From SAR324 cluster bacterium (GTDB taxonomy: Bacteria > SAR324 > NAC60-12): a stretch of DNA of 64,000 nt. Location: contig JADFZZ010000003.1 of the NCBI GenBank assembly GCA_015232315.1, positions 156,732-220,731 on the forward strand. The letters are read 5' to 3'. The notes under the pieces are model-generated. The model saw only the letters and a program-made list of their open reading frames with translations. It searched no databases and was not told where the DNA came from. The position numbers were made by a program, and so were the translations under genes. This document shows positions 11,339-59,952 of the stretch, one piece after another. Numbering within the stretch: position 1 is the stretch's first letter; each line of letters begins with the position of its first letter.

Positions 11339-11366
11339 CCTTCAACAGGGGTTCATCAATGAAAAA

Positions 11367-12035: not shown

Positions 12036-12052
12036 TAAGAAACTCCTTTTTT

Positions 12053-17971: not shown

Positions 17972-18204
17972 TCTTGATCTCCGAATAGGGTACTTCCTCC
18001 TTGATGTATCTACCAACTAGGTTCGTTTAACATGCTGCCACAAAGGATGCAAGCCCTCTGGAAAACAGGAATCAAAGGTGGAAACGGCCATCACATACTC
18101 ATAAGTTGGCTGAAGAATTTTAAACACAACCTTTATAGAACATTTCAGGGCAGTTAAAGACAAAAATCATGTCAATATACCCAATTTTTATTTTATTTTT
18201 TCCT

Positions 18205-41161: not shown

Positions 41162-41187
41162 AACTCAGCGTCCGGAAACCCGATCAA

Positions 41188-41376
41188 AAGTTTCCACCTG
41201 TGCAGGTGGTTTGAAAATGAGCCACCAAGAACGCTAAGAACACGAAAAAAAGGTTTTTTATATAAATGAAGTCCTCCGTGAAACCCTGATTTTCAAGTTT
41301 TCCGGTGTATATTCCCTTTTTTACTTTGTGTTCTTCGTGTACTTCGTGGCTGAAAAAGTACCTGCACAGCTCGATG
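41188..41376 (-). repeat. MITE-like palindromic element, family 2, copy 3 (inverted)
   Basis: Its reverse complement is near-identical to 25139-25325. Track ORF 41184-41441 merely reads through it. Confidence 0.85.
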
Positions 41377-41425
41377 TTATTTATTGAACGTTTCTTAGCC
41401 GGATAATACATCTTCAGAAAATAAA

Positions 41426-43693: not shown

Positions 43694-43703
43694 TCAGGAA
43701 AAG

Positions 43704-46031
43704 ATGGAACATCTGGAAAAACTGAAAATTCTGGTACTCGATGATGAAACCGATCTCTGGGAAACCATTCAGGATGCTTTGAAACGGGAACCTTATGAAT
43801 TACACTTTGCCAAAAATGGCAGGGAAGGGTTAGAGCGTTTTTATGAAGTGAAACCCATCGCTGTCCTGCTTGACTTACGCATGCCCGTCATGGACGGTTT
43901 CGCCTTTCTGGACAAGCTTCGTCCAAACCGGGAAGATCCGTATTTTGTTCTTGTCCTCTCGGGTCATGGGGATGATGACGATGTGAAAGCCGCTTATCAG
44001 TTGGGCGCGCAGGGATTCCTTCGCAAGCCGTTCAATGTGTTTGAACTCCGGGGAATCCTCAAACAAAATATTGACTTAAAACAAACGCAAAACCATTCAA
44101 AACAGGAATTACAGCGTCTCTATCAGGAACAATTACAGGAAGCCGCCCGCCTGAAAGCCGAGCAGGAAATATCGGCCTTTTTCAGTTCGGTGTTCTATTT
44201 TGTGCTGGAAAATCTCGAGGAGAGGTCCCCTGAAGAAATATTGGCCTCCATTGAAAGTTTCCTGCGGGATGAAATGCGTCTGGATGTCGCGGTAATTCTG
44301 GATTCCCGACAACAACTGAACAGCTTCAATACCGTGGAAAAAGAACTACTGCTCAATGCGGAAGCGGAAGGAGAACTGATTTTTCGGGAAGGCGGTTATC
44401 TCATCTGCCTGATACGCCCCCTGTATGTCCTGATCAGAAATCCGCCGGATGATTTCGACCAGGACAAACTCCACACCTTTGTTTCTACCGCGGCGTCACG
44501 CCTGGGTTTCGCGATTGCCCAGGACAGCAAACGGATCATGCATGAGGTGTTTGAAGAAGCCGTACTCTTGATCAACAGTCTCGGAGAGATTGAACCCGGC
44601 TTCACTGATATTTGTTTGAAGTTGTTCCATATTGCCGATAAGGCCACGTTTCTGCAAACAACACCGGGAACCCTGATGTATGGAAACACCCCTGACGCGG
44701 AACACTTTCAGGAATGGATTCGCTTATGTTTTGAGGGGGCGCTGGATTTTTCGGACATGCGTGCGTTGCAACCGACAGAAATGAAATCCCCGGACCACAA
44801 AATTCTGGAGATAGAGATGATCCCTATCCGTGATAAGGATCAGAGTTTGAAATTTATATTGATAAAATTTAAAGACGTCACCGCCTTGCGTGAACAGCAG
44901 GTTGAACTTGAACACCAGCAACATGTGCAGTTAGCAACCCTGAAAGTCATCAAAAATCGATCAGCATTCCTGAATTATTATCGCCTGGTGATGGATAGTT
45001 TTTCCAGTCAGGACGCAATCTTATCGGTTCCGCATACTGATCTGATTCGTTCGTTACATACCGCAAAAGGGATGTCAGGTGTCTTTTACCTGAAAGGCAT
45101 CCAGCAAAAATGTCATGATGCCGAAACCCTGTTAAAACTTGAACCGACACTTTCACCGGGAAGTTCTGTGATCGAATTGATCCAATCCATTGCTGACTGG
45201 CTTCAGGATTTCATCAACAAAGAGGTTTTACACTGGGTTCTGGGGGAAGATGACCGGTCCTTCACCGTTGACAAAAACTGGTTTTTACATATCCAGCGTC
45301 AGTTTCAGGTTCAAACGGATTTCACGCAGAACAGGGTTCAGCATCTTCTGCGGCAAATCACCTTCATCCCGTTGATATCTCTGTTCAAGCATTTTGAAAC
45401 GGTTCTGCAGGATTTGGCAGTGGCTCGGGGTAAAAGTCTGTACCCTCTCATGATCAATGACGATTCCGGCATTTTTGTACCACCGAAGGTATTGGATAAC
45501 TTAATAAACTCCATGAGTCATCTCTTTCGCAATGCGGTCGATCATGGCATAGAAACCACTGAGACCAGGACCATGCTGGATAAAAATGAAATGGGTCGTA
45601 TTGATCTTCATTTAGAAAGTGATGCGACTCACCTGATCATCCGGGTTTCAGATGATGGACAAGGCATTGATCAAAACAAACTGTTGAAGCATGCCGTCTC
45701 AAAAAACCTGATTTCGGCTGAAAAAGCCACAACGCTGAACAACGATGAAATCCGGCATCTGGTTTTTTGGGATGGCCTATCCACAAAAGAAGAAGTTGAT
45801 CTGGTGAGCGGTCGAGGTGTCGGGATGAGTGATGTGAGAGCCTCATGCAGGGAACTTGGCGGCACCATTGATTATCAAACCGGGATTGGTAAAGGAACCA
45901 TCTGGACCATCGCTCTGCCCCTGGAACGTATTTATGGCGAACTGGTTCCGCCTGAATACTATGCGTTGAACATTGTTGAATCTGTCCCTGAAAAGTCGGG
46001 GGTTGGTCCTGTTTTCTGTCACAAATTGTAG
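43704..46031 (+). CDS. REC - GAF/PAS-like - HPt - CheA-type ATPase kinase (paralogue of 41426-43693)
   Basis: ATG 43704 follows AGGAAAAG. 775 aa. Same REC signatures, HPt LHTAKGMSGVF, ATPase boxes HLFRNAVDHGIE, DDGQGID, GRGVGM, GKGTIWTIALP. No P5-like domain. Confidence 0.85.
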   Translation: MEHLEKLKILVLDDETDLWETIQDALKREPYELHFAKNGREGLERFYEVKPIAVLLDLRMPVMDGFAFLDKLRPNREDPYFVLVLSGHGDDDDVKAAYQLGAQGFLRKPFNVFELRGILKQNIDLKQTQNHSKQELQRLYQEQLQEAARLKAEQEISAFFSSVFYFVLENLEERSPEEILASIESFLRDEMRLDVAVILDSRQQLNSFNTVEKELLLNAEAEGELIFREGGYLICLIRPLYVLIRNPPDDFDQDKLHTFVSTAASRLGFAIAQDSKRIMHEVFEEAVLLINSLGEIEPGFTDICLKLFHIADKATFLQTTPGTLMYGNTPDAEHFQEWIRLCFEGALDFSDMRALQPTEMKSPDHKILEIEMIPIRDKDQSLKFILIKFKDVTALREQQVELEHQQHVQLATLKVIKNRSAFLNYYRLVMDSFSSQDAILSVPHTDLIRSLHTAKGMSGVFYLKGIQQKCHDAETLLKLEPTLSPGSSVIELIQSIADWLQDFINKEVLHWVLGEDDRSFTVDKNWFLHIQRQFQVQTDFTQNRVQHLLRQITFIPLISLFKHFETVLQDLAVARGKSLYPLMINDDSGIFVPPKVLDNLINSMSHLFRNAVDHGIETTETRTMLDKNEMGRIDLHLESDATHLIIRVSDDGQGIDQNKLLKHAVSKNLISAEKATTLNNDEIRHLVFWDGLSTKEEVDLVSGRGVGMSDVRASCRELGGTIDYQTGIGKGTIWTIALPLERIYGELVPPEYYALNIVESVPEKSGVGPVFCHKL

Positions 46032-46058
46032 GGGCGAACCTGTGTGTTCGAACTGATA

Positions 46059-46346
46059 CCAATGTCGTCAACTTAAGGCGTTCTTCGCCGTGGAATCCCC
46101 TTTTCAAAGGGGTCATGGGGGATTTAAAGCTCAGAATAACATCCCACTAACCCCCTTGAACCAAGGGGAATTGGTGCCAGCGCCTTCACAATGTCGTCAA
46201 CTTAAGGCGTTCTTCGCCGTGGAATCCCCCTTTTCAAAGGGGTCATGGGGGATTTAAAGCTCAGAATAACATCCCCCGCCCCAGCACCCTTAAACCAAGG
46301 GGGAATTGGTGCCAGCACCTTCACAGGGCTTAACTTAACAGACGTG
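46059..46346 (+). repeat. Two head-to-tail family-1 MITE copies (46059-46188 truncated, 46189-46346 complete)
   Basis: Both begin caatgtcgtcaacttaaggcgttcttcgccgtggaatcccc. Only the second has a right end, and it is of the other subtype (cttaacttaacagacgtg). Confidence 0.85.
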
Positions 46347-46628
46347 GACGAGACGTCAGGAACCAGAGTAGTGTTAAAAAACTTTTGATCGGGTACTTAC
46401 CATCCGGTTGACGCTAAGGAACATTCGAAAAATAAAACAGATAAATTCTCCGAACAATATTTCCTGTCGGGCACACGTAGAGACGCGCTATAGCACGTCT
46501 CTACAGACCAGAACAGGAGAGACTGGATTGGAAAATGTTTACAACTTATTCTTTTGCCGTTCCTAAAATCATAAGAACAACCCCGGGTGTACTGTCGGCG
46601 CAATCCGTTTCATTAAAAGGTTTCAAAC

Positions 46629-49508
46629 ATGCTGCATATAGGCATTATCGGTGGATCTCAAAAACAGATTGATACCTTACTGGCCATCCATAACACCAAT
46701 AAAGTCCCCTTTTTTTCCAGATCAAATGCTGTCATTTCCGTGATTGAAGCGGAGGAATCCGCAGAGGAATTGCTGATTGATGCATTGTTTTATGTGTCGC
46801 CAGTCAGTCATCTGGAACATGATTCAAAGCAGGCGAGAGCGTCCATGAAATGGATCCGGGGACTCCGGAACTACTCCTCTTATGGCGTCCGGAAAACGAT
46901 ACGAGGTTGTCACCATCTGTTGATCGGAGACATTCCACAGTATTTGAACCAGATCAAAAAAATGGATATAGATCTGTTTGTTCATTTTCAGGAGAACCCT
47001 GAATGGCAAATCGTCGACAGCATAGAACTCTTGTTCCATAAGAGGGACTTGATTGAAATGCCCGAGATCCATTCTGTGACAGATTCCTCCAAAAACACGC
47101 GTCAAGCCTCAACGAATGTCCGTATCCCTGTCAGTGAAATCGATACAGTCCGGTTTCAGGAAAACGGGGATAATGAGAAGGCGTCCTTGAACGAATCATC
47201 GCCCCGGTTTCATTCGGTGCGCCTGAAAGATCAGGAAGGAGCCCAAACGATTGCGGAACTGAAGGGTGTGGATATTCCGTTTCAAAATATCACCTCCCTG
47301 ACTTTCAAGCAAAAAGGCCAGGGCAGGATGTCCCTGCCCGTTGATTCAATCCAGGCCTTGAAATCCGGGAAACACAACGTTTGGGCGCTGGAATTATTCG
47401 AATTGTGGAAAATCCGGGAAAAAGTATGTGCTTCGGGGACATTTCAGTTACGTCTGGACGCGACAGCCTTCAAAGACCTGGTCATTGATGAGGCTTCCTA
47501 TCTGCCGATCAGATTGAATCATGCTCTTTCGCGGGTCAACCGCCGGTGTGAAGCGCAACAATGGGACAAGTACATGGAATTCCGGACCTTCAGTCTTCAG
47601 GAACGTCCTGTTTTGATCGCGCTTGACGCGGATTTGGCGGCCATCCTGGTGAAACAGATCGGGAACATCGGGTTCAAGGATGTACGGATCATTACCAATG
47701 ATGATGAACTCGGGCAGACACTGAATGAATGCCATCTCTTCAATGAAAATCAGGAGTTTTCAACCACAGTCAAGTTTCCTACCTTAATCACGACCCAGGC
47801 TCGACAAGCGCAGATTAAACAACAATATCCGGCAATCCAATGTTATGGAATTCCCGGGTTTGACCTCATTGATCCCAAAAATATCGGGCAAAACGCGGAA
47901 CGGGAACTTTTAAAAAATGAAGTCGAAAACAAGATTCAGAGTCTCCTGCAAGAGGCTGAAAACAACCCCTTGCAGACGTTTTACCTCAAAATCGTTCATC
48001 TGTTCATGATGTACCAGCTTGAGGAAAATACCACTGATATCATCGCCAAACTGCAGAAACAGACGGAACATTTTATTGGAAATTTATCCAGACTGTTTCA
48101 GGCGGAAGCCCGGAAAATTCAGGAACAGAAGAATCTAAAACTGAAAATAGAGGCTAAAATCAAAGAATTGAACGCGGAGATTACCAAATTAAACCTTGCG
48201 ATCACTGAGGCGGAACAAAAAATCAAAAAACTGGATGGAGCTTTGCAGCAAAAAAAGGCCCTGACGGATCAAATGGCTGAACAGGAACATACCGTGAATG
48301 ATCTCAAAGACCAAATCAGCGCGACAATCCTGGAACAGGAAAAACTGAAACTGGAAGTCGAGGCCGACCGTGCGGATCGTGAGCAAACTACTCTGCAACT
48401 GGAAGAACTTAAAAAAAAGTATGATGATTTGTTGTTCCAGCACGAAAAAAATAAAGTGATTTTCGGTACGCCGGAGCAGGTCGCAAGAATCAAAAAACAG
48501 ATTCAAAAATTCCCTGCACGGAAACAGTCGCTGGAGGACCAGATTGCGGCAACTCAAAATATGCTCGACACACTGTCTGTTGCGGTGAAGCAACTCAACG
48601 GAACACAAAATAAATGTGCTCAACTCGAAACGCGTCTGAAAAATGAGAAGCATACCCTGGAACAGTTATCCGAAAAAGTGGAAGTCACCATGGGAAAACA
48701 TGAACGGGCCTTGAAGGCGTTTCTGTTGCATCATGAGAAGGTTACAAGCCGTTTGAATCTGGTTCAGGAAGCCTTGAATAAACTGAACCTCCGCTATCAA
48801 AAACTCAGCACCGATCTGATGGGGCGTGAATCGGCCTACCAACAGGAAAAGAGCCATGCTGAGTCGTTTGGTCAAAAAATTCTGAACTGGATCAGAAATA
48901 TCGGGGACATCAGTGAACTGGGCGAAGGGCTTTCCACTCTGGGAAACGAGGCCGATGTGGGCTTGCGGGAAATTAAAGAACTGATTGAGATGATCAATAA
49001 ATTGATGACTCTGCGGAAAATTCAGGATGCCGACCAGTCCCTGGTAACAGATGTCATGGCGACCCTGGAGAAAAATTTCACTTTTTATCATTTGCCGCAA
49101 CTGGAACAACTGGAGGCTCCGCTCGTTTTTATCGGGGACAAGATGAATTATCCTGTTTTCACCAACAAGTTACTGTCCATGGTTCAGGCCAATGAACAAA
49201 AGGGCGTCACGTTGAACTGGGATCGGTTTGAACATACCAATGTCTCATTTTCCAAACAGATCATCCTGCTCGACCTTTCAGATCGGGCCGACGATGAAGA
49301 ACTTCATGCGAAAGTCGGTGAGTTTTGCATGCAACTGGCGTTGCAAAACTTTATGATCATCCTGTTACCTGATGAAGTTCTCTTTGACCCTAAATGGCAG
49401 GTCTTCAGAAGCATGTCACTCTGCCTTCCCGCAAAACATCTGGACACCTTTCTGGCACCGCCCTTGTTCCAATGGATGCAAAACATCCAAAAATGGAATG
49501 CGCTGTAG
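46629..49508 (+). CDS. Large coiled-coil protein, unknown function
   Basis: 959 aa. The central ~330 aa are heptad-rich (KIKELNAEITKLNLAITEAEQKIKKLDGALQQKK...). The globular N- and C-terminal parts have no recognisable catalytic motifs. Confidence 0.75.
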   Translation: MLHIGIIGGSQKQIDTLLAIHNTNKVPFFSRSNAVISVIEAEESAEELLIDALFYVSPVSHLEHDSKQARASMKWIRGLRNYSSYGVRKTIRGCHHLLIGDIPQYLNQIKKMDIDLFVHFQENPEWQIVDSIELLFHKRDLIEMPEIHSVTDSSKNTRQASTNVRIPVSEIDTVRFQENGDNEKASLNESSPRFHSVRLKDQEGAQTIAELKGVDIPFQNITSLTFKQKGQGRMSLPVDSIQALKSGKHNVWALELFELWKIREKVCASGTFQLRLDATAFKDLVIDEASYLPIRLNHALSRVNRRCEAQQWDKYMEFRTFSLQERPVLIALDADLAAILVKQIGNIGFKDVRIITNDDELGQTLNECHLFNENQEFSTTVKFPTLITTQARQAQIKQQYPAIQCYGIPGFDLIDPKNIGQNAERELLKNEVENKIQSLLQEAENNPLQTFYLKIVHLFMMYQLEENTTDIIAKLQKQTEHFIGNLSRLFQAEARKIQEQKNLKLKIEAKIKELNAEITKLNLAITEAEQKIKKLDGALQQKKALTDQMAEQEHTVNDLKDQISATILEQEKLKLEVEADRADREQTTLQLEELKKKYDDLLFQHEKNKVIFGTPEQVARIKKQIQKFPARKQSLEDQIAATQNMLDTLSVAVKQLNGTQNKCAQLETRLKNEKHTLEQLSEKVEVTMGKHERALKAFLLHHEKVTSRLNLVQEALNKLNLRYQKLSTDLMGRESAYQQEKSHAESFGQKILNWIRNIGDISELGEGLSTLGNEADVGLREIKELIEMINKLMTLRKIQDADQSLVTDVMATLEKNFTFYHLPQLEQLEAPLVFIGDKMNYPVFTNKLLSMVQANEQKGVTLNWDRFEHTNVSFSKQIILLDLSDRADDEELHAKVGEFCMQLALQNFMIILLPDEVLFDPKWQVFRSMSLCLPAKHLDTFLAPPLFQWMQNIQKWNAL

Positions 49509-49819
49509 ACCCCTCATTTTCCTCCATTGTAATTAATTTTTTTCCTCCCGGCTAAAATAGATTTTTTGGCATGGTCTTTGTTATATTCTGTCCTGAAGGT
49601 CAGATGTTGTCCTGAATCTCATATCCTGTATTGCTTTTATGCAATAAAACAGGTTATAGCTAACATGATGTGTTCCGGGTTTCTGATTCCCGATGTTTTG
49701 TAAAAACCTCATCGAACCAGTCCTGATCACATCACAAACGCAGGAGACAGACTCCACGTATTGAGCATTCTTCAACTGGAATGCGGAAATATTGAATAAC
49801 CTTTTGCAATAAAAACGAT

Positions 49820-50185
49820 ATGTCCAAGAAAGCTTTGGTAATGGATGATTCACCGATTATCCGGAAAATGTTGACACATGGCCTGACCCGTTCGTTTGGC
49901 TTTGAGGTCATTGAAGCCGAAAATGGTCAGGATGGATTGACAAAGACCTCCCAACACGAGTTTGATTTGATTTTTTCCGATATCAATATGCCGGTCATGA
50001 CGGGGGTAGAATTTCTTGAAAAGTTCCGTAGCACCAACACCACAACCCCGGTGTTCATGCTTACCTCGGAAAAAGAAGATGTTTACAAACAAAAATGTCT
50101 GGATTTAGGAGCAACCGATTTTTTCAAAAAGCCGTTCAAACCAAATACCATCGAAGCCGCGTTGAAACAACTTCTGGAGGGGTGA
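49820..50185 (+). CDS. cheY: Single-domain response regulator, CheY-like
   Basis: 121 aa. VMDDS, FSDINMP (acceptor Asp), MLTSE (Thr), FFKKP (Lys). Confidence 0.85.
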   Translation: MSKKALVMDDSPIIRKMLTHGLTRSFGFEVIEAENGQDGLTKTSQHEFDLIFSDINMPVMTGVEFLEKFRSTNTTTPVFMLTSEKEDVYKQKCLDLGATDFFKKPFKPNTIEAALKQLLEG

Positions 50186-50233
50186 TCAGGCTGATTCATC
50201 AATTGCCAGACTTCTGGTTCCCATGCTCTGCGT

Positions 50234-50388
50234 CAAGGCTGTTAAGTTAAGAAATTACCTGCGAGAAAATCCCCCTTTTCAAAGGGGGCATGGGGGATTT
50301 AACGCTCAGAGTTACATCCCCCTAACCCCCCTTAAACCAAGGGGGAATTGGTGCCAGTGACTTCACAGGGCTTAACTTAACAGACGTG
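50234..50388 (+). repeat. MITE-like element, family 1, flanked by an 11-bp direct repeat
   Basis: Termini are caaggctgttaagttaag / cttaacttaacagacgtg. ATGCTCTGCGT occurs at 50223-50233 and 50389-50399. Confidence 0.9.
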
Positions 50389-50414
50389 ATGCTCTGCGTG
50401 GGAACCTCCGGGGG

Positions 50415-50566
50415 CAATGTCGTCAACTTAAGGCGTTCTGCGCCGGGGAAGCCCTCTTTTCAAAGGGGGCTTGGAGGATTTAACGCTCAGAATTACATCC
50501 CCCTAACCCCCTTGAAACAAGGGGGAATTGAAACACAGCACCATTCAGAATGCTTAACTTCTAACA
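50415..50566 (+). repeat. MITE-like element, family 1, with a degenerate right end
   Basis: It starts caatgtcgtcaacttaaggcg, has a conserved core, and its right terminus is decayed (cttaacttctaacacc). It lies 26 bp after the previous copy. Confidence 0.8.
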
Positions 50567-50577
50567 CCTGAAAACAA

Positions 50578-53500
50578 ATGGGTATAGTCATTGAACTGAG
50601 AGACTACAAAGACAATAGTGACAGTGGCGACTTGCCGTTAGGCAAAGACAGCTTTCAGGAAGTGACAACGGCCAGACAGTTGGTCGCGTTTGTCAAAAAG
50701 ACTGAAGGCAGTTGCGCTCTGACGATCAATTTGCCCAAAGTTGAATTGGCTAAAGCCATTCCCCAATTGGTTGAGTTACTGCACAAAAGCAATCCGGCAA
50801 TCCAGAAGCATGTGCTGGAAATCCTTGGCAATATGGGAATGCCGGAAGTCGTTCCCCACATCATTCCTTATTGTTTTCAACCAGACCCCTATCTCAAAGC
50901 CCAGGCAGTCAAGTCGCTCGAACTGTTGGGGCAACCGTCGGCGATCCTGCCCTTGAAAGATTTGCTCAATGATAAAAATCAACGCATTCAGAAAATTGTC
51001 AGGAATGCCTTGAGTAAACTCATCAGCAATGAATTTTTGTTGACGATGGTCAGCAACGAAGAAGAAAAATCAGGAATTTCTACAGAAGAAACATTCTTTG
51101 AGCTGATTTCTATCTTCAATGAAGAAGAATTCCATAATTTGTCTCCCGGCACAATGAAGTCAATTATTGAATTCTTCCGTAAAAATCATGAGAAAGCCCG
51201 ACGAACCGAAGAAAAACTCCTGCAAAAGCAATGGGAAGCCGATGCGGTAACGCAAAAATTATTTGAACTGCAACAGCAGTTGAAACAGAAATACTCTGAA
51301 TCCAGACTGGAACTCGATCTTTTCAGGAAAAGTATTTTGTCCCACACCGAAGAGCGGCATCTCTTACCGGGGGTGATCGACACTCAAAGTCATGAGTTGG
51401 AGCAGTTACATACACGTTTTGATGATCTTACCCGTGAAAACGCTGACGCCAAACTTGAGATTTCAAAGTTGCTGGCCACGCTTGAAGAGCAAAGGTCACA
51501 ACACAGGGCATCCCTGGCAACCCGGGAAACAGAAGCCGAGGCGGATGAAATCGGGTTGGAGCAAGCCTTAACCGCATCTCTCGAAGAAAATGAAACAGAA
51601 AATGAGGATGACGAACTAGAGCTGGAAGAGTCTTTAGGCGCTCTTGATTCAGCCTCCGACAACGAATTGACAGCGGAACATTTTGATCCGGGCATTGTAA
51701 TCTTTAATGAAGAAATCCTGGACGATCTGCTACTCAATGATCAAGCCCTTGAGTCCAGTGCACCGGCCAAACGGATGTTGTCTGAAAAAATTGTGATGGT
51801 CGAGCAAAATCATGATGCGTCAGACTACCTCAAAAGTTTGTTGAGATATGCCGGCTTTTCCAACATTGTGGTGTTTCATGATGGCCGACTTGCTTATGAA
51901 ACAATCCGTCAATCCCATGATACCATCAGCCTGATTCTGACGGCACGGTCTATTCCGCAAATGAACGGTCTGGAACTGTTAACCAAAGTGCGATCGTTTG
52001 AACAGGAAGACGGCTTGAAACCCTGTCCGGTGTTGATGATCACTGAAGATCTCAACACCTACAAAGTCAATGAACTCCACAAAGCCGGAGCAGCCGAAGT
52101 ATTTCCAAGGTTATTTATTCCTGAAAACTTCGTTGACAGGGTTATTCACCATTCTGGCGCCGAAAAGGCCTTGAGTGCTTCGAATCTGACCCTGGAGGCG
52201 GCCAAAGAAGAACTGCTCAATCTTGCTAAAACCTGTCAAGTCCAGTTTTGTAAAACCACTAAAAAACGCATCACCCTGTCTGTCAAATTCCCTCAGGATC
52301 TTCGTGCCGCGCCAACACGCATTCCCGGATTTCAGGAGATTTTTAAAACACTCATCGAATTCAGCATCGTTTCCGCGGTAAACCGCTCAACAGTCACTCT
52401 GCATTTCAAATCAACGGACTCATCCCGCGATTCAGTATTCCAGTTGAACGCCAGTTTTATTCCAGACAAAGGGAACACTTTTCTTTCTCTGGAAAATCAA
52501 TTCAATGATTTAGAGGACGTTGCCTCTGGAGAATTGAAAGAAGTTCAGAACACGGATACCCTGGGACAAAAATTCATCCAGATCACACTGGCGTTCTCAC
52601 AGCAGGGAATGATTCAATCCACTAAAGATGGACGTCACTCCAGTGAAGACTTCGATGATGAAGAAGTCTTTGATTTACTGGACGATCTGGAAGAAGACGG
52701 AAGCGATATCCAGAAAATTGTCTCCTCCCTGCATAAACTTTGTGAGGAAGAACCGTTCCGGTTGTTTTCAGTATTGGACTATCTCCATGATGGCCATTTC
52801 GAACAGGCTCACCGGGAAATTTTAGAAATGTTGCAGAAGTTGGACAGGGTCGATATCATCCCCTATTTAATCCGGCGTTTTCCTCAACTGCACAAGGAAT
52901 ACAAGCTGTGGACACTGTCCTTCATTGCTGAAAAAGATCTCAAAGCAGGACTGTACTTTATCATCAGTGTTCTCCGGGACGAGGATGAAGAAGTTCGGCA
53001 TCGGGTTCTGTCGGTTCTGCTCAAGCATTTTGACGCGTCTTTTCTGCACCTGTTGATGCATTCTTTTGTCCGTACCTTCCACCTGCCACGGACGATCAAA
53101 CAGACCGATATCCTCAGACGCCTTCCGCCAAAGGAACGCTCGGCGTTTTTTCAGGTTCTGTTGTACAATGAATCCTTTGAACTATCGGTTCCGTTCCTGT
53201 TCGGCTATCTGGACGCGGCGGCGCCCTATGAACAAGAATCGATTTACACTGCGTTGGCGGCCCAGGAATCGCTGGCGTATCTGGCTGAAGAACAGACAGA
53301 AATTCTCAAAAACCATTTTGAACAACAGCACGTTCTGCGACGTTTGCCTCGAATCACCTTGAGTTTGTTGCTGTCCACCAAGGCCGATCTGCTGAAATGG
53401 TTGATGAAACAGATCAAGCCCGCTCATTGGGTCGAAGTCTTCAAAGCAAGATTTGTGAAAGACATCAAATCAGGCTGGGAAGCCATGGGCATGTTTGTTC

Positions 53501-54426
53501 AGGAGGGAATGCAGGAAATACTCGATCATATCGTCCAGGCCGATGAATTGCTGGAAGCTGAGACTCTGGCAGAAGATCAGGAAAAAGAGATTTATCGAAT
53601 GCTTCACATGAGTAAAGGCATTGCCTTGAGTCTGGACCTGGAAATATTGGTCGCACTCTATCATTATGTGGAAGATCTGTGGTCCCATACCTTGAACAGG
53701 GACGACATGGATTTGGCAGAGTTGGACACTTTTAAAAAGCACTATAAATGCTTGCTCGATGTGACAAAAGCCGCTTCACGGATCTTGCGTCTGGCTGAAC
53801 ATGACGACTCCTTCCTGCGTGAAAAAATCGCGCTCAACAGTGTTTTCCCGAGAATGCAGCACCTCTTCAATAAATTGACAACGATGCTGAGAAAAAAAGC
53901 AACGTTGACCCTGCTCGAAGAAAAAGAGTTTTACCTGAACCCGAATTTGCTGAATTCCTTGAATGAGATGCTTATTCAATTATTAAAAAACAGTGTGGAC
54001 CATGGTGTGGAACTGAGTGAAGCCCGTCTTCGGGCCGGGAAATCTGAGGTTGGTGAAATTCAGTTGAGAATTGGTGAAAACAACGGGAACCTTCAGATCA
54101 TTGTTTCTGATGATGGCCAGGGACTTCAAATTGAGAGAATCGCAAAAAAATGTATTGAGAAAAATTTGTTGACTGAAGCTCAGGCAACGGCTCTTCTGAC
54201 AGACCCTGCCAGACACCATGAACTGTATGAGTTTATTTTTGCGTCTCAATTCAGCACAGCTCAAACCACCTCTGAGGTTTCCGGACGAGGCGTTGGTATG
54301 GATATCATCAAATCAGAATTGAATGACATGGGTGGAACGATCGCTATCGAATCAAAAGCCGGAATCGGCAGTTCCTTCATTCTTCAAATCCCCTTGCAGG
54401 AAAATCAAATCGTAACTGAAGCCTGA
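50578..54426 (+). CDS. HEAT-repeat / pseudo-receiver / HPt / CheA-type ATPase giant kinase
   Basis: 1282 aa: N-terminal HEAT/PBS-lyase-type repeats, a coiled coil, an acidic tract, and a REC-like fold without an acceptor Asp (LILTARSIPQMNG). More HEAT-like repeats follow, then HPt LHMSKGIALS and ATPase boxes LLKNSVDHGVE, DDGQGLQ, GRGVGM, GIGSSFILQIP. No P5 domain. Confidence 0.8.
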   Translation: MGIVIELRDYKDNSDSGDLPLGKDSFQEVTTARQLVAFVKKTEGSCALTINLPKVELAKAIPQLVELLHKSNPAIQKHVLEILGNMGMPEVVPHIIPYCFQPDPYLKAQAVKSLELLGQPSAILPLKDLLNDKNQRIQKIVRNALSKLISNEFLLTMVSNEEEKSGISTEETFFELISIFNEEEFHNLSPGTMKSIIEFFRKNHEKARRTEEKLLQKQWEADAVTQKLFELQQQLKQKYSESRLELDLFRKSILSHTEERHLLPGVIDTQSHELEQLHTRFDDLTRENADAKLEISKLLATLEEQRSQHRASLATRETEAEADEIGLEQALTASLEENETENEDDELELEESLGALDSASDNELTAEHFDPGIVIFNEEILDDLLLNDQALESSAPAKRMLSEKIVMVEQNHDASDYLKSLLRYAGFSNIVVFHDGRLAYETIRQSHDTISLILTARSIPQMNGLELLTKVRSFEQEDGLKPCPVLMITEDLNTYKVNELHKAGAAEVFPRLFIPENFVDRVIHHSGAEKALSASNLTLEAAKEELLNLAKTCQVQFCKTTKKRITLSVKFPQDLRAAPTRIPGFQEIFKTLIEFSIVSAVNRSTVTLHFKSTDSSRDSVFQLNASFIPDKGNTFLSLENQFNDLEDVASGELKEVQNTDTLGQKFIQITLAFSQQGMIQSTKDGRHSSEDFDDEEVFDLLDDLEEDGSDIQKIVSSLHKLCEEEPFRLFSVLDYLHDGHFEQAHREILEMLQKLDRVDIIPYLIRRFPQLHKEYKLWTLSFIAEKDLKAGLYFIISVLRDEDEEVRHRVLSVLLKHFDASFLHLLMHSFVRTFHLPRTIKQTDILRRLPPKERSAFFQVLLYNESFELSVPFLFGYLDAAAPYEQESIYTALAAQESLAYLAEEQTEILKNHFEQQHVLRRLPRITLSLLLSTKADLLKWLMKQIKPAHWVEVFKARFVKDIKSGWEAMGMFVQEGMQEILDHIVQADELLEAETLAEDQEKEIYRMLHMSKGIALSLDLEILVALYHYVEDLWSHTLNRDDMDLAELDTFKKHYKCLLDVTKAASRILRLAEHDDSFLREKIALNSVFPRMQHLFNKLTTMLRKKATLTLLEEKEFYLNPNLLNSLNEMLIQLLKNSVDHGVELSEARLRAGKSEVGEIQLRIGENNGNLQIIVSDDGQGLQIERIAKKCIEKNLLTEAQATALLTDPARHHELYEFIFASQFSTAQTTSEVSGRGVGMDIIKSELNDMGGTIAIESKAGIGSSFILQIPLQENQIVTEA

Positions 54427-54591
54427 ACAATAGTAAGCGTTCAGCCGTCAGTTATCAGTACGATATTTTTTGCTATTGAGTTATAATGCTTCTGAAGCGT
54501 ATAAACACTGAAAGCTGAATAATGAAAGCTGAACGCTTACGAACAATATTCTGTTCAGGTGTCAGTTTGACACCAAATCAATAGGAGAAAT

Positions 54592-54891
54592 ATGCTACCC
54601 ACTACTGAAAAAAAAAATGACCGTATTACAGCACGAGTGCCTACAGATATACGCGAACGTCTGATAGAAGCCGCAGCGTTTTCTGGAGCGACCCTGAACC
54701 AGTTTTTAATCCAGGCCGCAATTGAAAAGGCCAACACAATCCTTGAAAAAGAACGGATCATCCATCTCTCTTATCATGATGCGGAAGTATTTTTTAAGGC
54801 ACTGGAAAATCCCCCCAAGCCCAATCAACGTTTACGGAAAGCCATAACAAAATATAAAGATTCAGGCCTCTATGAACCCGTTCAAGATTGA
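54592..54891 (+). CDS. Type II antitoxin, DUF1778 / TacA-like (RHH)
   Basis: 99 aa. RITARVPTDIRERLIEAAAFSGATLNQFLIQAAIEKA. Overlaps the downstream GNAT gene by 20 nt. Confidence 0.85.
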   Translation: MLPTTEKKNDRITARVPTDIRERLIEAAAFSGATLNQFLIQAAIEKANTILEKERIIHLSYHDAEVFFKALENPPKPNQRLRKAITKYKDSGLYEPVQD

Positions 54892-55375
54892 GCTACTGAC
54901 AACAAAACATCACAAACAGAAATTTGATTGTGGTGTGAAAGAACTTAATCATTACCTTCAATCAATGGCATCTCAACATGCCACTAAAGGAATTTCCAGA
55001 ACTTTTGTTCTCGTACATCCTCAGGAACCAGAGAATATCCTGGGGTTTATCACTCTGTCCATCTGTGAGATTAACGCTCAAATACTTCCAACGCAGTTCG
55101 CCAAGAAGTTTCCCTCTAAAGTTCCTGGCGCAAAGATTGGTCGATTAGCCATCTCCCGAAAACATCAACGACAAGGATTAGGAGAACTCTTGATGCTTCA
55201 TGCAATGAATCAAACGCTTCTGGTTCATCATGTCTTTGGCCTTACCGGAGTATTAGTTGATGCTAAACATGAACAGGCACAACAGTATTACATCCGCTAT
55301 GGATTTATCCCATTACCCCAAATACCACTGACGTTATTTCTTCCGATAAAAACTCTCTTGGAAGCATTTAAATGA
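54872..55375 (+). CDS. GNAT-family acetyltransferase toxin (TacT/AtaT-like)
   Basis: 167 aa. FDCGVKELNHYLQ..., RLAISRKHQRQGLGELLMLHA (acetyl-CoA site), ...YYIRYGFIPL. The pairing with a DUF1778 gene is typical. Confidence 0.85.
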   Translation: MNPFKIELLTTKHHKQKFDCGVKELNHYLQSMASQHATKGISRTFVLVHPQEPENILGFITLSICEINAQILPTQFAKKFPSKVPGAKIGRLAISRKHQRQGLGELLMLHAMNQTLLVHHVFGLTGVLVDAKHEQAQQYYIRYGFIPLPQIPLTLFLPIKTLLEAFK

Positions 55376-55415
55376 ACAATCGCAATTGTTCGAGAAAGCC
55401 AACAGGGAAAACGCA

Positions 55416-56642
55416 ATGACTAATAAAGTTATCGATCTGTACCACTACAGAGATCCATCCTCCACCATGGAGACTGTCCTGACGCTTTTGTCGAAATGGT
55501 CACAAAAATCCCGGGAGCAGGCAAACCTTGATCATTTGAGATTAAGGAGCCTCCTGCCAGCCCTGTTTCTGGAATTCAACCATTATGAAATGGAGCTCAG
55601 AATCAAAGTGATCGATCTGCTGGCACAGGCTCAGATTTCAGAAGCTGTGCCCTTTCTGGTTGCCTATCTGAGTGATTCTGACCCGGAAATGAAAGCAAGT
55701 GTAATTCAGGCCCTGGGCGTGCTGAAGAATCACTTTGCGGTTCTGCCTTTGAAAAACGCCTATGATCATGAATCCCCGGAACTCAGGCAGGAGATTCTCA
55801 AAGCACTGAGCCTGCTGGTGGACGATGTGTTCTTTTCTCATTTTTTGGGGAGTGATCCAAATCTGAACAGAATTACGATTGCCATGGAACTTCTGGACAT
55901 GCTCTCGTCCGAAAATCAGCAATTACTATCTCCCCGGGGATTCAGAATGTTCCTGGATCAACTGCTTCCACATTTTTTAAAAATCCGACGTGCGGATTTT
56001 GATGTAAAAACATTAAAACAGACCATAAACACACTCGAAAATGAATTACATACGCATCATGATCAACATGAGCGTGCCCTTGAAACAATGAAATTCCAAA
56101 TGAAAATCCAGCATTTGCAGTTACAGGGTTTTCTGGAAGTTCCTTCTGCCCGGGATGTTTTGGAAAGTGACGCGCCTGTTGAGGAAAAACCGTACCCTGT
56201 GCAACCTCAAAAGTTTTTGAGTTTGAAGGAGGTGATTATTCAGGCAAACAAAAGTGTCCTTGAAGAAGACACCCGTAACAATGTGAGGAAAAAGGTAACC
56301 TTTACCAAAACGCTACAGCTCGAACCTTCGATGGCTGAGAACTTACTGTTGCTTCTGAAACACCTCATGAGCCTGGCAAATTCAATTGCGAGACCAGACC
56401 GGAAGGTTCAGATCCGGATCAATGACATACACGCGGATCAACCTAGCACTTCCACTATTATCACGATGAAAGGAACCGCCGTTGATCCAACCTCACTTGA
56501 ACGTTTGATCTCAACCCATCCCGTGTATCAGGAACTGAAAAGAACGGTTTCTTTTCTTGGCTGGACAGTAGACAGAACCATGGATCGTGGTGATTTCTGT
56601 ATCACGATTCAGGTAAAATCTCCCTCTTCAACTTTACCTTGA
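55416..56642 (+). CDS. HEAT-repeat protein, paralogue of the N-terminal part of the 1282-aa kinase
   Basis: About 408 aa from ATG 55416 (the track ORF begins at TTG 55386). VIDLYHYRD... and the HEAT units (AVPFLVAYLSDSDPEMKASVIQALGVL...) parallel VIELRDYKD... and PHIIPYCFQPDPYLKAQAVKSLELL in the larger protein. No HPt or ATPase boxes. Confidence 0.7.
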   Translation: MTNKVIDLYHYRDPSSTMETVLTLLSKWSQKSREQANLDHLRLRSLLPALFLEFNHYEMELRIKVIDLLAQAQISEAVPFLVAYLSDSDPEMKASVIQALGVLKNHFAVLPLKNAYDHESPELRQEILKALSLLVDDVFFSHFLGSDPNLNRITIAMELLDMLSSENQQLLSPRGFRMFLDQLLPHFLKIRRADFDVKTLKQTINTLENELHTHHDQHERALETMKFQMKIQHLQLQGFLEVPSARDVLESDAPVEEKPYPVQPQKFLSLKEVIIQANKSVLEEDTRNNVRKKVTFTKTLQLEPSMAENLLLLLKHLMSLANSIARPDRKVQIRINDIHADQPSTSTIITMKGTAVDPTSLERLISTHPVYQELKRTVSFLGWTVDRTMDRGDFCITIQVKSPSSTLP

Positions 56643-56702
56643 AAACAATAAGGAATTGTAAAAGAATCAATTGTAAAAGTTTGCTCGTGCCCTACGTCCC
56701 GT

Positions 56703-56856
56703 TCAGGGCTGTTAAGTTAAGAAATTACCTGCGAGAAAATCCCCCTTTTCAAAGGGGGCAGGGGGATTTAAAGCTCAGAATAACATCCCCCTAACCCCCT
56801 TAAACCAAGGGGGAATTGGTGCCAGTGCCTTCACAGTGCTTAACTTAACAGACGTG
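56703..56856 (+). repeat. MITE-like element, family 1, flanked by a 10-bp direct repeat
   Basis: Termini are tcagggctgttaagttaag / cttaacttaacagacgtg. TACGTCCCGT occurs at 56693-56702 and 56857-56866. Confidence 0.9.
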
Positions 56857-56925
56857 TACGTCCCGTGGTTCCTAACCAGAAAGTTTTCCCTGTTATTTTT
56901 TGAACGTTCCTAACAGTTGTTTCCT

Positions 56926-58050
56926 ATGATTGAGCACAAAATTATCATTGTTGATGATGAAATGATCATCCGGCATATGATAGAAAAAAAATTATCAGAT
57001 CAGGGTATTGAGGTGCTTCAGGCAACCGATGGACTCAGTGGACTCCAATTGATTCTTGAACATCCTGAGGTCAAACTTATTGTGACTGATTATAAAATGC
57101 CCCGGATGGATGGTTTTACCATGCTGAAAAAAGCCAGAGAGATCCGCTCGGACTTTCGTTTTATTCTGATGTCCGGTCATGCTCAAGGAGGCGATATTAT
57201 TGATGCCTTGAGGTTGTCTGCCAGTGATTTTTTTATTAAACCGTTCAATTTGGGGACTTTTTCGACATCCATCAAACGCAATTTGATTGAAATCGAGCAG
57301 GAAGCCACACAAAAGCACCTACAGGAACAATTGCTCCAGTCTGCCAAATTGGCTTCCATCGGGGAGTTAGCCACTGGAATTGCTCATGAAATAAATCAAC
57401 CACTGTCCTATATCAGCGGCCATGTTCAAACACTTCTGGAAGATATTGAACTGGAAGATGTCACCTTGAAGGAGGTTTATGCTTTAATGAAAGAGTTCGA
57501 AAAACGCATCGGGCGAATCAACTCCATAATATCCCATCTCCGCTTCTTTGGTCGTGAGCACGGATCAACATTCAGTGAGACAAATCTGGTCGATGTTTTC
57601 GAAAGCTGTCTGCTACTCCTCAACGAAAAAATTCGCCTCAGAAGCATTGAACTGAAATTTGAACACAGTGAAAATCTGCCTTTGATCAAAGGAAATTCTC
57701 ATCAGTTGGAGCAGGTGTTGATCAACTTGTTCCAAAATGCCATTGACGCTCTGGAACATCGAAACGATGGGCGCATCACCGTTCAAATCAACCATCATCC
57801 TGAAAAGGAGGTCATTGAGATACGCTTTACAGACAATGGAAGCGGCATTTCACCCAAGGATTTAGGTCACATTTTTGATCCGTTCTTCACGAAAAAACCG
57901 GTAGGAAAGGGGACGGGTCTCGGGCTATCCATCTCGTTTGGCATCATCCAGGCCCATCGGGGAACCATTGTCTGTGAGTCGGAACTCAATAAGGGAACCT
58001 GTTTCATCATCACCTTACCGACACCAACGGATCGAGAACAGACAGACTAA
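56926..58050 (+). CDS. Hybrid REC - HisKA - HATPase_c sensor histidine kinase
   Basis: REC (IVDDE, IVTDYKMP, LMSGH, FFIKP). H-box GIAHEINQPLSYI, N-box NLFQNAIDAL, G1 DNGSGI, G2 GTGLGLSIS. The track ORF begins at TTG 56917. Confidence 0.88.
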   Translation: MIEHKIIIVDDEMIIRHMIEKKLSDQGIEVLQATDGLSGLQLILEHPEVKLIVTDYKMPRMDGFTMLKKAREIRSDFRFILMSGHAQGGDIIDALRLSASDFFIKPFNLGTFSTSIKRNLIEIEQEATQKHLQEQLLQSAKLASIGELATGIAHEINQPLSYISGHVQTLLEDIELEDVTLKEVYALMKEFEKRIGRINSIISHLRFFGREHGSTFSETNLVDVFESCLLLLNEKIRLRSIELKFEHSENLPLIKGNSHQLEQVLINLFQNAIDALEHRNDGRITVQINHHPEKEVIEIRFTDNGSGISPKDLGHIFDPFFTKKPVGKGTGLGLSISFGIIQAHRGTIVCESELNKGTCFIITLPTPTDREQTD

Positions 58051-58063
58051 GGGGCCGCCAAAC

Positions 58064-58092
58064 GTAGAGACGGGTTTGAAACCCGTCTCTAC
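58064..58092 (+). terminator. Stem-loop 14 nt after the kinase stop (possible intrinsic terminator or REP-like hairpin)
   Basis: gtagagacgggt-ttgaa-acccgtctctac (12-bp perfect stem) followed by cggttatttcttt. A related hairpin, gtagagacg...cgtctctac, occurs at 46477-46504. Confidence 0.5.
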
Positions 58093-58214
58093 CGGTTATT
58101 TCTTTATGCCCCCTAAACCTGAAGGCAATGATTGATTTTATGACAGAATTTTAATCTTGTGAATGTGCCGTCAATCATTATTCTGACGCCCTTGATTATT
58201 TCCGGGGTAACGTT

Positions 58215-58367
58215 CACGTTTGTTACGTTAAGCACTGTGAAGGCACTGGCACCAATTCCCCCTTGGTTTAAGGGGGTTAGGGGGATGTTATTCTGAGCTT
58301 TAAATCCCCCATGCCCCCTTTGAAAAGGGGGATTTTCTCGCAGGTAATTTCTAACTTAATAGCCTTG
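58215..58367 (-). repeat. MITE-like element, family 1 (inverted orientation)
   Basis: Reverse complement of the 56703-type copy. Imperfect flanking duplication (G)GGGTAACG(TT) / (A)GGGTAACG(CG). Confidence 0.85.
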
Positions 58368-58485: not shown

Positions 58486-59640
58486 ATGAAAACACAGACC
58501 GCCTCAGATCCCTATTCCTTTGACCGTATTTCTCCTGCTCCTGTTTCCGCTGACCAATGCACAGATTGCCGTAGCTATTTAATCTCTCTTTCTTTTTTCG
58601 CGAACGTAATTTTTGTGGTGATAGAAGGGTTTGTTGGAATCATGGCCGGTAGTCATGCCCTGGTCGCGGGCGCACTGCATTCACTGTCAGACACCACCAC
58701 TTTTGGCCTGAATTATTTTGAGGATCGGCGGCATTTAGCCAACGTACAAAAGGTGAATCCGGGCATCAATGTTTTCATGGGTGTCACCATGTTCATCGCG
58801 GGGGCCTGGATATGTGCCCGCAGTGTGTCGGCTCTTGTGATCAATGACCCCTATCGTCCCGGACTCATGGGGCTTTCGGTCGCGGCGATTTCAGTCGGCC
58901 TCAACTGGTATCTGTGGAATTTATCAAAATGTGTCTATGAAAATCACAAAGACCAGCGCGTCAACATCTGCAAGATTCAAAACACCCTCAATTTTTTTTC
59001 AGCGGTATTGACACTGACTGGCGTTTTGCTGGCTGATCTTGGTTTTGTATTTTTTGACCCCCTGTTTGCCGTTTTTATTGCTCTCACCATGATTTTCGCT
59101 TCCTCGTCCATCCTGCGAGAGACCTTTGGGGCCGATGATAATTTTACGCCGAAATCCAGGATGGTGATTTATCTGGTCATAGCCTTCCATGCCGCAATCA
59201 TTATATTCTTTGTGACGGCTACAACCATCAAAGTCCTTGATAGCCGCAATGTGATTCTTATTCCTTCAGAAGGCACAACGCTCGATAGCAAAATAGATTC
59301 CAGGCTGGGAAGATCCAACTATTTTATCATTTACGATATTCGCACTGACAGTGCTGTCACTGTGATCAATACAGACCGGAATGTCGAAGGGGACGTGAGC
59401 CACAACTTAATTGGTGTGATCGATGAGTACAACGTCGGTGTTGTGATCGCGCCGCATGTTGGCAAAGAAGTGTTTGATAAACTGGTATCAAAAAAGACAG
59501 CGATGTATTATGACGGTCACAATGTCACTGTCAACCAGGCCTTGCAGGATCAACAATCCGGACTTCTGGAGCAGGCTACAATCAACAACGTGGATCGTGG
59601 CTATGGCCGTAATGTTGTCAAATGGCTCAGTGTCTGGTAA
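58486..59640 (+). CDS. CDF-like membrane domain fused to a NifX/NifB-C-terminal-like (Nitro_FeMo-Co type) domain
   Basis: About 384 aa from ATG 58486. TM2 SHALVAGALHSLSD is CDF-like with Gly in place of the first Asp. After an extra TM, the C-terminal ~110 aa (SRLGRSNYFIIYD...VGVVIAPHVGKEVFDKL...MYYDGHNVTVNQAL) match the NifX-type cofactor-binding fold pattern. Confidence 0.65.
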   Translation: MKTQTASDPYSFDRISPAPVSADQCTDCRSYLISLSFFANVIFVVIEGFVGIMAGSHALVAGALHSLSDTTTFGLNYFEDRRHLANVQKVNPGINVFMGVTMFIAGAWICARSVSALVINDPYRPGLMGLSVAAISVGLNWYLWNLSKCVYENHKDQRVNICKIQNTLNFFSAVLTLTGVLLADLGFVFFDPLFAVFIALTMIFASSSILRETFGADDNFTPKSRMVIYLVIAFHAAIIIFFVTATTIKVLDSRNVILIPSEGTTLDSKIDSRLGRSNYFIIYDIRTDSAVTVINTDRNVEGDVSHNLIGVIDEYNVGVVIAPHVGKEVFDKLVSKKTAMYYDGHNVTVNQALQDQQSGLLEQATINNVDRGYGRNVVKWLSVW

Positions 59641-59757
59641 GTACTCGACCATAAATCTTTAACCATTTTTTCTGGTTCCCTACCTCTGGTGGGGAACCCT
59701 CCTTATCCCCCTCCGGTGGCTTGCCAACGAGCCGTGGAAGGGCACCAGAGGTGCGTT

Positions 59758-59952
59758 ATGGAACGGTTCCCGACGAGATGTCTTGAAGCACAAAAAACAG
59801 GTAATGAACGATTAAGTCGAATGGAAACACGTCTGGCTCATGTAGAGCATGAGCTTCATTCAGGGTTCCATGAACTCAGTTCAAAAATGGATCAAACTCG
59901 CCAGGAAACAGTTGATTTATTACGTCAACTCGTCACAAACACCCGAAAATAA
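59758..59952 (+). CDS. Small hypothetical helical protein
   Basis: ATG 59758 follows GAGGTG. 64 aa: MERFPTRCLEAQKTGNERLSRMETRLAHVEHELHSGFHELSSKMDQTRQE.... No family recognised. The longer track ORF (from 59689) reads through a hairpin repeat. Confidence 0.3.
   Translation: MERFPTRCLEAQKTGNERLSRMETRLAHVEHELHSGFHELSSKMDQTRQETVDLLRQLVTNTRK

Follow-up and report, generated by a model that had tools for sequence, protein, structure and literature searches.

Cation diffusion facilitators (CDFs) have a cytoplasmic N-terminus followed by six membrane helices, as seen in YiiP structures, and the cytoplasmic domain of canonical members is a metal-sensing regulator. Magnetosome CDFs such as MamB and MamM are known as a general idea, and magnetosome biology asks by which route and in which chemical form iron passes from the transporter to the magnetite or greigite crystal. 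Proteins of the Nitro_FeMo-Co superfamily, such as NifX, NafY and the orange protein (ORP), hold inorganic metal clusters or cofactors, non-covalently in the case of ORP, and the known members are soluble and cytoplasmic. Here we analysed a gene of a SAR324 cluster bacterium that fuses a CDF membrane domain to a NifX-like domain. The gene lies in a stretch of 64,000 nucleotides (contig JADFZZ010000003.1 of assembly GCA_015232315.1, positions 156,732 to 220,731), hereafter the window, to which all coordinates refer unless another locus is named.

SAR324 magnetotactic genomes with Proteobacteria-like gene clusters have been described by Lin et al. 2020 (PMC7602337). We found a single paper connecting a NifX domain with magnetosomes, a genetic screen in Desulfovibrio magneticus RS-1 (PMC4287615), in which FmpB (DMR_41100), a protein with magnetochrome, PDZ and NifX domains, was named for its fewer-magnetic-particles phenotype. 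Mad17 and Mad30, homologues of FeoB and FeoA, are proposed iron-uptake components of deep-branching magnetotactic bacteria (PMC9376291, PMC10278575). No description of a CDF-NifX fusion was found in the literature searched, which did not include subscription-only papers and supplements. Each of the two domains is already known; new relative to that literature are a conserved CDF-NifX architecture with seven helices, an amide-substituted site and a probably outward-facing domain, and its apparent restriction, across phyla, to genomes with magnetosome genes.

A CDF membrane domain and a NifX-like domain joined by a seventh helix

The coding sequence, taken from the list of open reading frames (58486..59640, forward strand, stop codon included), encodes 384 amino acids and starts with ATG at 58486; an alternative in-frame TTG is found at 58471. 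The protein is 99% identical to MBF0237617.1, from a SAR324 metagenome-assembled genome, where it is annotated as 'cation transporter'. A preliminary description of this DNA had proposed a CDF-like membrane part followed, after an additional transmembrane (TM) helix, by a NifX-type domain in place of the usual cytoplasmic domain, and our searches bore this out. Pfam placed PF01545 (Cation_efflux) on residues 35-214 (58588..59127, forward strand) with an E-value of 1.1e-16 and 61.7 bits against a cut-off of 26.6, covering profile positions 3-194 of 198, and PF02579 (Nitro_FeMo-Co) on residues 267-355 with an E-value of 2.3e-10 and 41.1 bits against a cut-off of 26.3. ZT_dimer (PF16916), the CDF C-terminal domain, was not found in the protein by the Pfam search, and the full-length CDF model TIGR01297 scored 60.6, under its cut-off of 82.35.

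An AlphaFold2 model built from a 22-sequence family alignment agreed with this domain set (predicted local distance difference test, pLDDT, 85.1; predicted template modelling score, pTM, 0.78), low confidence being limited to residues 1-19 and 372-384. It contained helices at residues 22-54, 57-82, 92-119, 126-153, 157-184, 190-216 and 222-253, and residues 256-360 formed an alpha/beta domain. Thus, the six helices of the Cation_efflux domain are followed by a seventh one (residues 222-253; 59149..59244, forward strand), which was hydrophobic and modelled with a pLDDT above 90, and by the NifX-like domain instead of the CDF cytoplasmic domain. For the membrane part, Foldseek returned structures of YiiP and ZnT proteins. 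The C-terminal domain (residues 254-360; 59245..59565, forward strand) matched ORP (2wfb) with a template modelling score (TM-score) of 0.91 and a root-mean-square deviation of 1.2 A, TM1290 (1rdu) with a TM-score of 0.80 and NafY (1p90) with a TM-score of 0.68. A sequence search of the PDB with the C-terminus also retrieved TM1290 (1rdu, E-value 5e-8), ORP (2wfb) and MTH1175; the fold is the same and the identity 28%. The chain ends in a conserved tail of the form A-x3-N-V-..-G-x-G-R-..-W-L-x-P-W, whose last residue is W384 (59566..59637, forward strand). Domain set and fold, together with the conserved residues, the distribution of the family and the neighbouring genes given below, are direct observations of this analysis.

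A rare family with an amide-substituted metal site

Apart from the protein itself, a word-indexed search with the single sequence matched just one weak CDF. The family was revealed by an exhaustive HMMER search over 1.84 billion cluster representatives, which gave 28 proteins at E <= 1e-30; besides the query, 21 of them were full-length relatives (355-434 amino acids, 31-41% identity, aligned from residue ~21 to 384). The full architecture was present in about 22 clusters at 50% identity among the 1.84 billion clustered proteins. Together with sequences from the loci recovered below, these relatives made up 39 non-redundant members, most of them metagenome sequences, with pairwise identities of 24-78% (mean 37%). 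All family counts refer to this set.

The profile alignment of the family membrane domain to Shewanella YiiP (E-value 4e-15) mapped H65, D69, Q165 and N169 onto D47, D51, H155 and D159 of YiiP, the ligands of its site A. By this mapping, the TM2 half of site A (H65-x3-D69; 58678..58692, forward strand) is intact and only the TM5 half altered: the CDF signature (H/D)-x3-D is present in TM2 and absent from TM5, where amides replace it in the motif C162-x-x-Q165-N166-x-x-N169 (58969..58992, forward strand). At the same TM5 positions, MamB of the window reads D-N-R-S-D, MamM H-H-G-A-D and the fusion protein Q-N-T-L-N. In YiiP and ZnT proteins, which share the membrane fold and align one to one at these positions, site A is D/D/H/D or H/D/H/D, whereas here it is H/D/Q/N. 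The amides were close to invariant in the family (Q165 in 38 of the 39 members, N166 in 37 and N169 in 37); H65 was found in 35, D69 in all and C162 in 34, and D191 of TM6 was invariant. The preliminary description had reported site A as partly lost, which holds for TM5; its other argument, a Gly in place of the first Asp, concerned G62, a non-ligand position at the conserved Asp of 'ALxAD', one helical turn ahead of the H65/D69 pair.

Two residues of the protein deviated from this pattern. Position 47 is Glu (58624-58626), where 38 of the 39 members, as well as MamB and MamM, have Lys, and position 62 is Gly (58669-58671), where 37 members and again MamB and MamM have Asp or Glu. They may reflect a lost TM1-TM2 ion pair. 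A sequencing error is not the cause, because the same residues are present in the independent SAR324 assembly that encodes the 99% identical protein.

In the C-terminal domain, the family shared the motifs LGRxxYF, N295 and a GDVS loop, and the tail was strongly conserved (A364 and W384 in all members, W380 in 38 and N368 in 37). The GDVS loop and the W-L-x-P-W end distinguish the family from the rest of the Nitro_FeMo-Co superfamily. A Cys-ligated Fe-S site in this domain was rejected, as 30 of the 39 members are free of Cys there.

Relationship to MamB and MamM

Between 18.5 and 38.3 kb, the window carries magnetosome genes for MamE, MamP, MamQ, MamT, a second, magnetochrome-bearing MamE, MamK, MamM, MamO, MamA, MamQ, MamB and MamS. 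The best NCBIfam matches of the fusion protein were MamB and MamM (NF033616 and NF033615; 62.9 and 63.7 bits), far under the 350-bit equivalog cut-offs, while the true MamB and MamM of the window reached 375.7 and 388.4 bits on these models. A profile of the family transmembrane domain gave 117 bits with MamB and 90 with MamM of the window, and 39 and 28 bits with its two ordinary CDFs. The family also shares cysteines with the magnetosome clade. A predicted cytoplasmic N-terminal CxxC (58558..58569, forward strand; C25 in 32 and C28 in 33 of the 39 members) and C149, at the cytoplasmic end of TM4 (58930..58932, forward strand; 33 of 39), aligned with cysteines of MamB, MamM and the MamB-like CDFs of the window, which its two ordinary CDFs lack. 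Because of these shared cysteines and the profile scores, the family looks like an offshoot of the MamB/MamM clade.

Like the fusion protein, MamB and MamM combine the six-helix CDF membrane domain with the N-terminal CxxC, the Cys at the end of TM4 and the H-x3-D of TM2, and they are encoded in the same genomes as the family, sometimes in the same clusters. In contrast, they keep D/H-x3-D in TM5 (Q-x3-N in the fusion protein), the TM2-TM3 loop 'PYGHGKxE' and the cytoplasmic C-terminal domain. The family has lost this loop, through a 9-residue deletion, as well as the 'LMD' linker and the cytoplasmic domain. The possibility that the family corresponds to Mad17 or Mad30 was rejected, since those are FeoB and FeoA homologues (PMC9376291, PMC10278575).

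The NifX-like domain most likely lies outside the cytoplasm

Given the N-in, six-helix fold of CDFs, a seventh helix would bring the C-terminal domain to the far side of the membrane. Hydrophobicity in the protein peaks at residues 226-244 (Kyte-Doolittle 2.6), and the seventh helix was hydrophobic in all 39 members. The distribution of positive charges followed the positive-inside rule, with a mean of 4.9, 2.5, 2.2 and 3.6 Lys plus Arg in the predicted cytoplasmic loops and of 0.3, 0.9 and 0.05 in those predicted to lie outside. In a relative, P0033, the CDF is complete, cytoplasmic domain included, and a TM helix connects it to the same NifX-like domain with an LSPW ending. From CDF topology, the additional helix and the charge distribution we infer that the NifX-like domain most likely faces the magnetosome lumen or the periplasm, so that, compared with YiiP and ZnT, which carry ZT_dimer, the predicted C-terminus lies on the opposite side of the membrane.

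Outside the family, a profile of its C-terminal domain matched only signal-anchored NifX-like proteins, at 83, 78, 58 and 54 bits. Such proteins (P0143, P0179, P0140 and a 234-aa protein of locus L033) are its nearest relatives for this domain. They differ from the fusion in being separate polypeptides with an N-terminal anchor, in having an N-E-x-H-A-V-G-L-R loop rather than G-D-V-S and in lacking the W-L-x-P-W end. FmpB was not recovered by homology search with a C-domain profile. As judged by domain description only, FmpB is likewise a magnetosome-linked protein with a NifX/NifB-type domain, and its magnetochrome domains work outside the cytoplasm; it differs in having magnetochrome and PDZ domains and no transporter, whereas the fusion protein gave no Pfam match to either of these domains. 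The NifX-like proteins of the same loci that lack a TM helix did not match the C-domain profile. They form a second class, found in L019 (2765-4051 and 5555-6151), L027 (731-1135) and L032 (5024-5431), which in L019 includes a 428-aa fusion of CDF, ZT_dimer and NifX with no intervening helix. Because this class, the L019 fusion included, was unmatched by the profile, two distinct NifX-like lineages, as defined by their sequences, accompany magnetosome-type CDFs.

If the NifX-like domain lies outside the cytoplasm, it must fold and gain any ligand there. The preliminary description had suggested binding of Fe-S or FeMo-type clusters or precursors. This extracytoplasmic placement, together with the lack of conserved Cys or His, makes a Cys-ligated cofactor assembled in the cytoplasm unlikely. 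By analogy with ORP, a non-covalently held inorganic species would fit better.

Distribution of the family and its genomic neighbours

To find further loci we used a degenerate DNA pattern covering Q165-I198. Matches in a collection with one genome per bacterial or archaeal species gave 10 loci, nine of which were true homologues, and those in metagenomes gave 17 loci, 16 of which were true homologues; two of the 27 matches, L002 (Thioclava) and L023, were due to chance. Named members came from SAR324, Nitrospirota, Omnitrophota, Planctomycetota, UBA10199 and Bdellovibrionota, that is, at least six phyla. The preliminary interpretation would have been undermined by an architecture common in non-magnetotactic anaerobes; we found it to be rare, and all members traceable to a named genome fell in lineages for which magnetosome genes have been reported or shown. 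Of the nine genome matches, eight could be tied to such genes, in the case of nwag_bin3 and nCal2_bin1 by isolate-name and accession style only. These two (Planctomycetota and Omnitrophota, respectively) are among four assemblies named in the style of Lin et al. 2020, the others being nXX_bin1 (UBA10199) and nS315_bin20 (Omnitrophota), which that study lists as having magnetosome clusters (PMC7602337). Two Bacteriovoracia genomes with the family gene originated from the Black Sea and Saanich Inlet and are probably the ones from these sites for which magnetosome clusters have been reported (PMC13200544). Another member was found in Ca. Magnetomonas plexicatena (Nitrospirota).

The neighbouring genes often pointed in the same direction. 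In two more Omnitrophota (L003 and L008), only a PAS-domain gene separates the family gene from a MamB/MamM-like pair. MamQ is a neighbour in L013, MamK and a HEAT protein in L004, and a MamP-like magnetochrome protein and an LG-repeat magnetosome protein in L011. In L015 and L018, a gene combining NifX and PDZ domains, analogous to FmpB, lies directly upstream of the family gene. Across loci, the recurrent neighbours were Fur (five loci), FeoB (three), DtxR-FeoA (two), PAS proteins (three) and proteins with chemoreceptor zinc-binding (CZB) domains (three), and no molybdenum, copper or cobalamin genes recurred. In L017 and L021, CDF-NifX genes adjoin homologues of the DtxR-FeoA and FeoB genes of the window. 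Neither the window nor any related locus contained nif genes, which sets the family apart from NifX and NafY proper.

The signal-anchored relatives of the C-terminal domain are encoded beside Fer4_5, PDZ, magnetochrome and paired CDF genes. In the Planctomycetota locus L032, such a gene lies immediately upstream of the CDF pair in a mam-like cluster, in the Omnitrophota locus L033 four genes upstream of the pair in the same cluster, and another adjoins PDZ, magnetochrome and Fer4_5 genes. In Omnitrophota nCal2_bin1, about 4 kb lie between the family gene and a block of HTH (helix-turn-helix), NifX-like, Fer4_5, PDZ, magnetochrome, CDF and CDF genes. L009 showed no magnetosome-type neighbours within 8 kb, and the same gene seen with a 10-kb flank (L033) is about 4 kb from such a block. 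To judge from gene order and domain composition, the anchored NifX-like gene plus CDF pair of L032 and L033 represent an unfused version of the fusion protein. That the parts fused in the window are neighbours or near neighbours elsewhere argues for a shared function.

A role specific to greigite formation was considered and rejected, as members were found in magnetite-type lineages (the MamP/MamT/MamS set of the window, Ca. Magnetomonas) and in Bdellovibrionota, reported to be without greigite clusters (PMC13200544).

Possible functions of the fusion protein

Handling of an iron intermediate rather than simple efflux, as put forward in the preliminary description, is a reasonable inference. 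The reading we favour, to which we would give about an even chance, is that of a MamB-derived accessory magnetosome protein in which iron crosses a modified site and reaches a NifX/orange-protein-like domain in the lumen that holds inorganic iron non-covalently; its topology, ligand, transport activity and magnetosome localisation are all inferred. The cytoplasmic N-terminus would present three MamB-type cysteines and a family-specific fourth one. The six CDF helices would form a modified metal pathway around a central site made of H65 and D69 from TM2 and Q165 and N169 from TM5, and the seventh helix would return the chain across the membrane, placing the NifX-like domain in the magnetosome lumen (topologically the periplasm), over the exit of the pathway. 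Fe(II) would cross the altered site. With a single carboxylate in place of two or three, this site would probably differ from that of MamB and YiiP in proton coupling or in the form of the substrate. Iron leaving the pathway could then be bound non-covalently by the lumenal domain, in the form of a small inorganic species (oxo/hydroxo or sulfido), and be held there or delivered to the redox (magnetochrome) and nucleation machinery.

Several observations weigh against this reading. In the window, about 20 kb separate the gene from the mam genes, the last of which, mamS, ends at 38256, and the preliminary placement at the edge of a magnetosome island proved loose, since two-component genes fill the interval. 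It is apparently monocistronic, with a strong terminator-like hairpin upstream (58064-58092), and is flanked by a histidine kinase gene and cobalamin salvage genes. No recognisable magnetosome gene was found in L005, L006, L007 and L010, for which 7-8 kb per locus were available. As for the protein itself, it departs from its family at the two otherwise conserved positions described above (E47, not Lys; G62, not Asp or Glu), its NifX-like domain has no Cys or His conserved among the 39 members, so that no ligand can be read from the sequence, and the position of this domain over the pore is an assumption. Finally, the amides of site A resemble substitutions that inactivate other CDFs. Because of these amides and the loss of both the TM2-TM3 loop signature and the cytoplasmic domain, transport may be absent.

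This last point leads to the main alternative, itself rather unlikely, in which the CDF part is a non-transporting scaffold that pairs with MamB or MamM and tethers the lumenal NifX-like domain at the exit of the active transporter. Such auxiliary subunits have parallels, as MamM stabilises MamB and ZnT6 serves ZnT5. Of the four ligands of site A, two are neutral amides, and Foldseek matched the ZnT8 D110N/D224N double mutant (6xpd); Asp-to-Asn mutants of the ZnT8 type are transport-deficient. The family lacks the cytoplasmic regulatory and dimerisation domain as well as the TM2-TM3 loop signature, and its genomes also encode MamB and MamM, with the MamB/MamM-like pair one PAS-domain gene away in L003 and L008. 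However, H65, D69, Q165, N166, N169 and D191 are kept in 35-39 of the 39 members at a mean identity of 37%, whereas in a mere scaffold these intramembrane positions should tend to become hydrophobic. This strict conservation of polar residues within the membrane argues for a pathway in use. A sensor-gated transporter, in which the NifX-like domain, in lieu of the cytoplasmic domain, would gate the pathway according to the iron load or an iron mineral precursor that it senses across the membrane, appears improbable. The regulatory cytoplasmic domain is indeed the part precisely replaced, and regulators recur among the neighbours (Fur, PAS and CZB proteins in the numbers given above); in the window there are two-component genes. 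Yet related domains occur without a transporter, either signal-anchored or fused to PDZ, which would better suit a carrier or a scaffold.

We also consider it improbable that the protein serves ordinary metal homeostasis with no tie to magnetosomes, be it by exporting another metal or, like ORP, by handling a Mo/Cu-sulfide cluster. The NCBI annotation reads merely 'cation transporter', the gene is not adjacent to the mam genes in the window, the closest structure is that of a Mo-Cu cluster-binding protein and some loci have housekeeping neighbours only. Against this stand the rarity of the family, with only some 22 representatives, the magnetosome ties of eight of the nine genome matches, two of them through naming style, the MamB-clade signatures in the transmembrane domain and the lack of recurring molybdenum, copper or cobalamin neighbours.

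A wider proposal, possible though on balance doubtful, is that lumen-facing NifX-like domains are a conserved, overlooked magnetosome module outside Alphaproteobacteria, holding the first polynuclear iron species after transport. In that case, the fusion would act as a 'Rosetta stone' that places the NifX-like module in physical contact with a MamB-type transporter, and the amide-substituted pore would imply a transport mode unlike the proton-coupled antiport of known CDFs. The Q/N-substituted site is a natural experiment on CDF ion coupling. The joining of a MamB-type pathway to a predicted outward-facing domain of a cluster-binding superfamily provides a concrete candidate for the iron hand-off step, with residues 254-384 as its soluble part, and gives experimental access to the stage at which transported iron enters crystal nucleation. 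In deep-branching phyla, where its annotation now reads just 'cation transporter', the family could also serve as a marker of magnetosome formers.

Surroundings of the gene in the window

To the left of the mam genes (10349-18016), the window contains a block resembling the mad17/mad30/mad28/mad29 set. It comprises a CDF (10349-11338), a DtxR-FeoA fusion (11367-12083), FeoB (12053-14053), a CDF of 207 aa that has no C-terminal domain (14323-14946), an actin-like protein (15709-17265) and a ParA-like ATPase (17234-18016). On the other side, about 18 kb of contiguous signalling genes (39740-58050) encode response regulators, histidine kinases, receiver-kinase hybrids, a CheY-like protein and HEAT-repeat proteins, among them a 1282-aa protein combining HEAT repeats, receiver and kinase (50578-54426) and a HEAT-repeat protein (55386-56642). 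Signalling arrays beside magnetosome clusters have been noted for Bdellovibrionota (PMC13200544). The genes downstream of the fusion encode CbiZ, CbiB and a methyltransferase; a link to CbiZ and CbiB was dropped, as this neighbourhood was repeated in no related locus. The NifX-like domain described here is the only one in the window.

Large proteins of 706 aa (28696-30816, between the second MamE and MamK), 959 aa (46629-49508, within the two-component array) and 108 aa (24681-25007, a membrane protein within the mam region) matched no Pfam or NCBIfam model, and a putative 87-aa open reading frame in the 400-nt gap between the fusion gene and cbiZ (59689-59952) matched no family. An amino acid carrier gene of the alanine/sodium type (AGCS, 326 bits; 22544-23869) separates mamT from the second mamE block. 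Just past mamS, on the reverse strand, a gene (38680-39531) encodes a protein with two CZB domains; elsewhere, CZB-domain genes lie directly downstream of the closest CDF-NifX homologues in L011 (11187-11714), L012 and L022. Finally, an intergenic repeat element of about 130-160 nt with an internal G/C-rich palindrome was present at 56720-56861 (forward strand) and 58210-58352 (reverse strand). These two inverted copies, 90% complementary, flank the response-regulator/histidine-kinase gene at 56917-58050, and a 32-nt core recurs at 50268-50299 (forward strand). The element resembles a miniature mobile element or a repetitive extragenic palindromic (REP)-like repeat.

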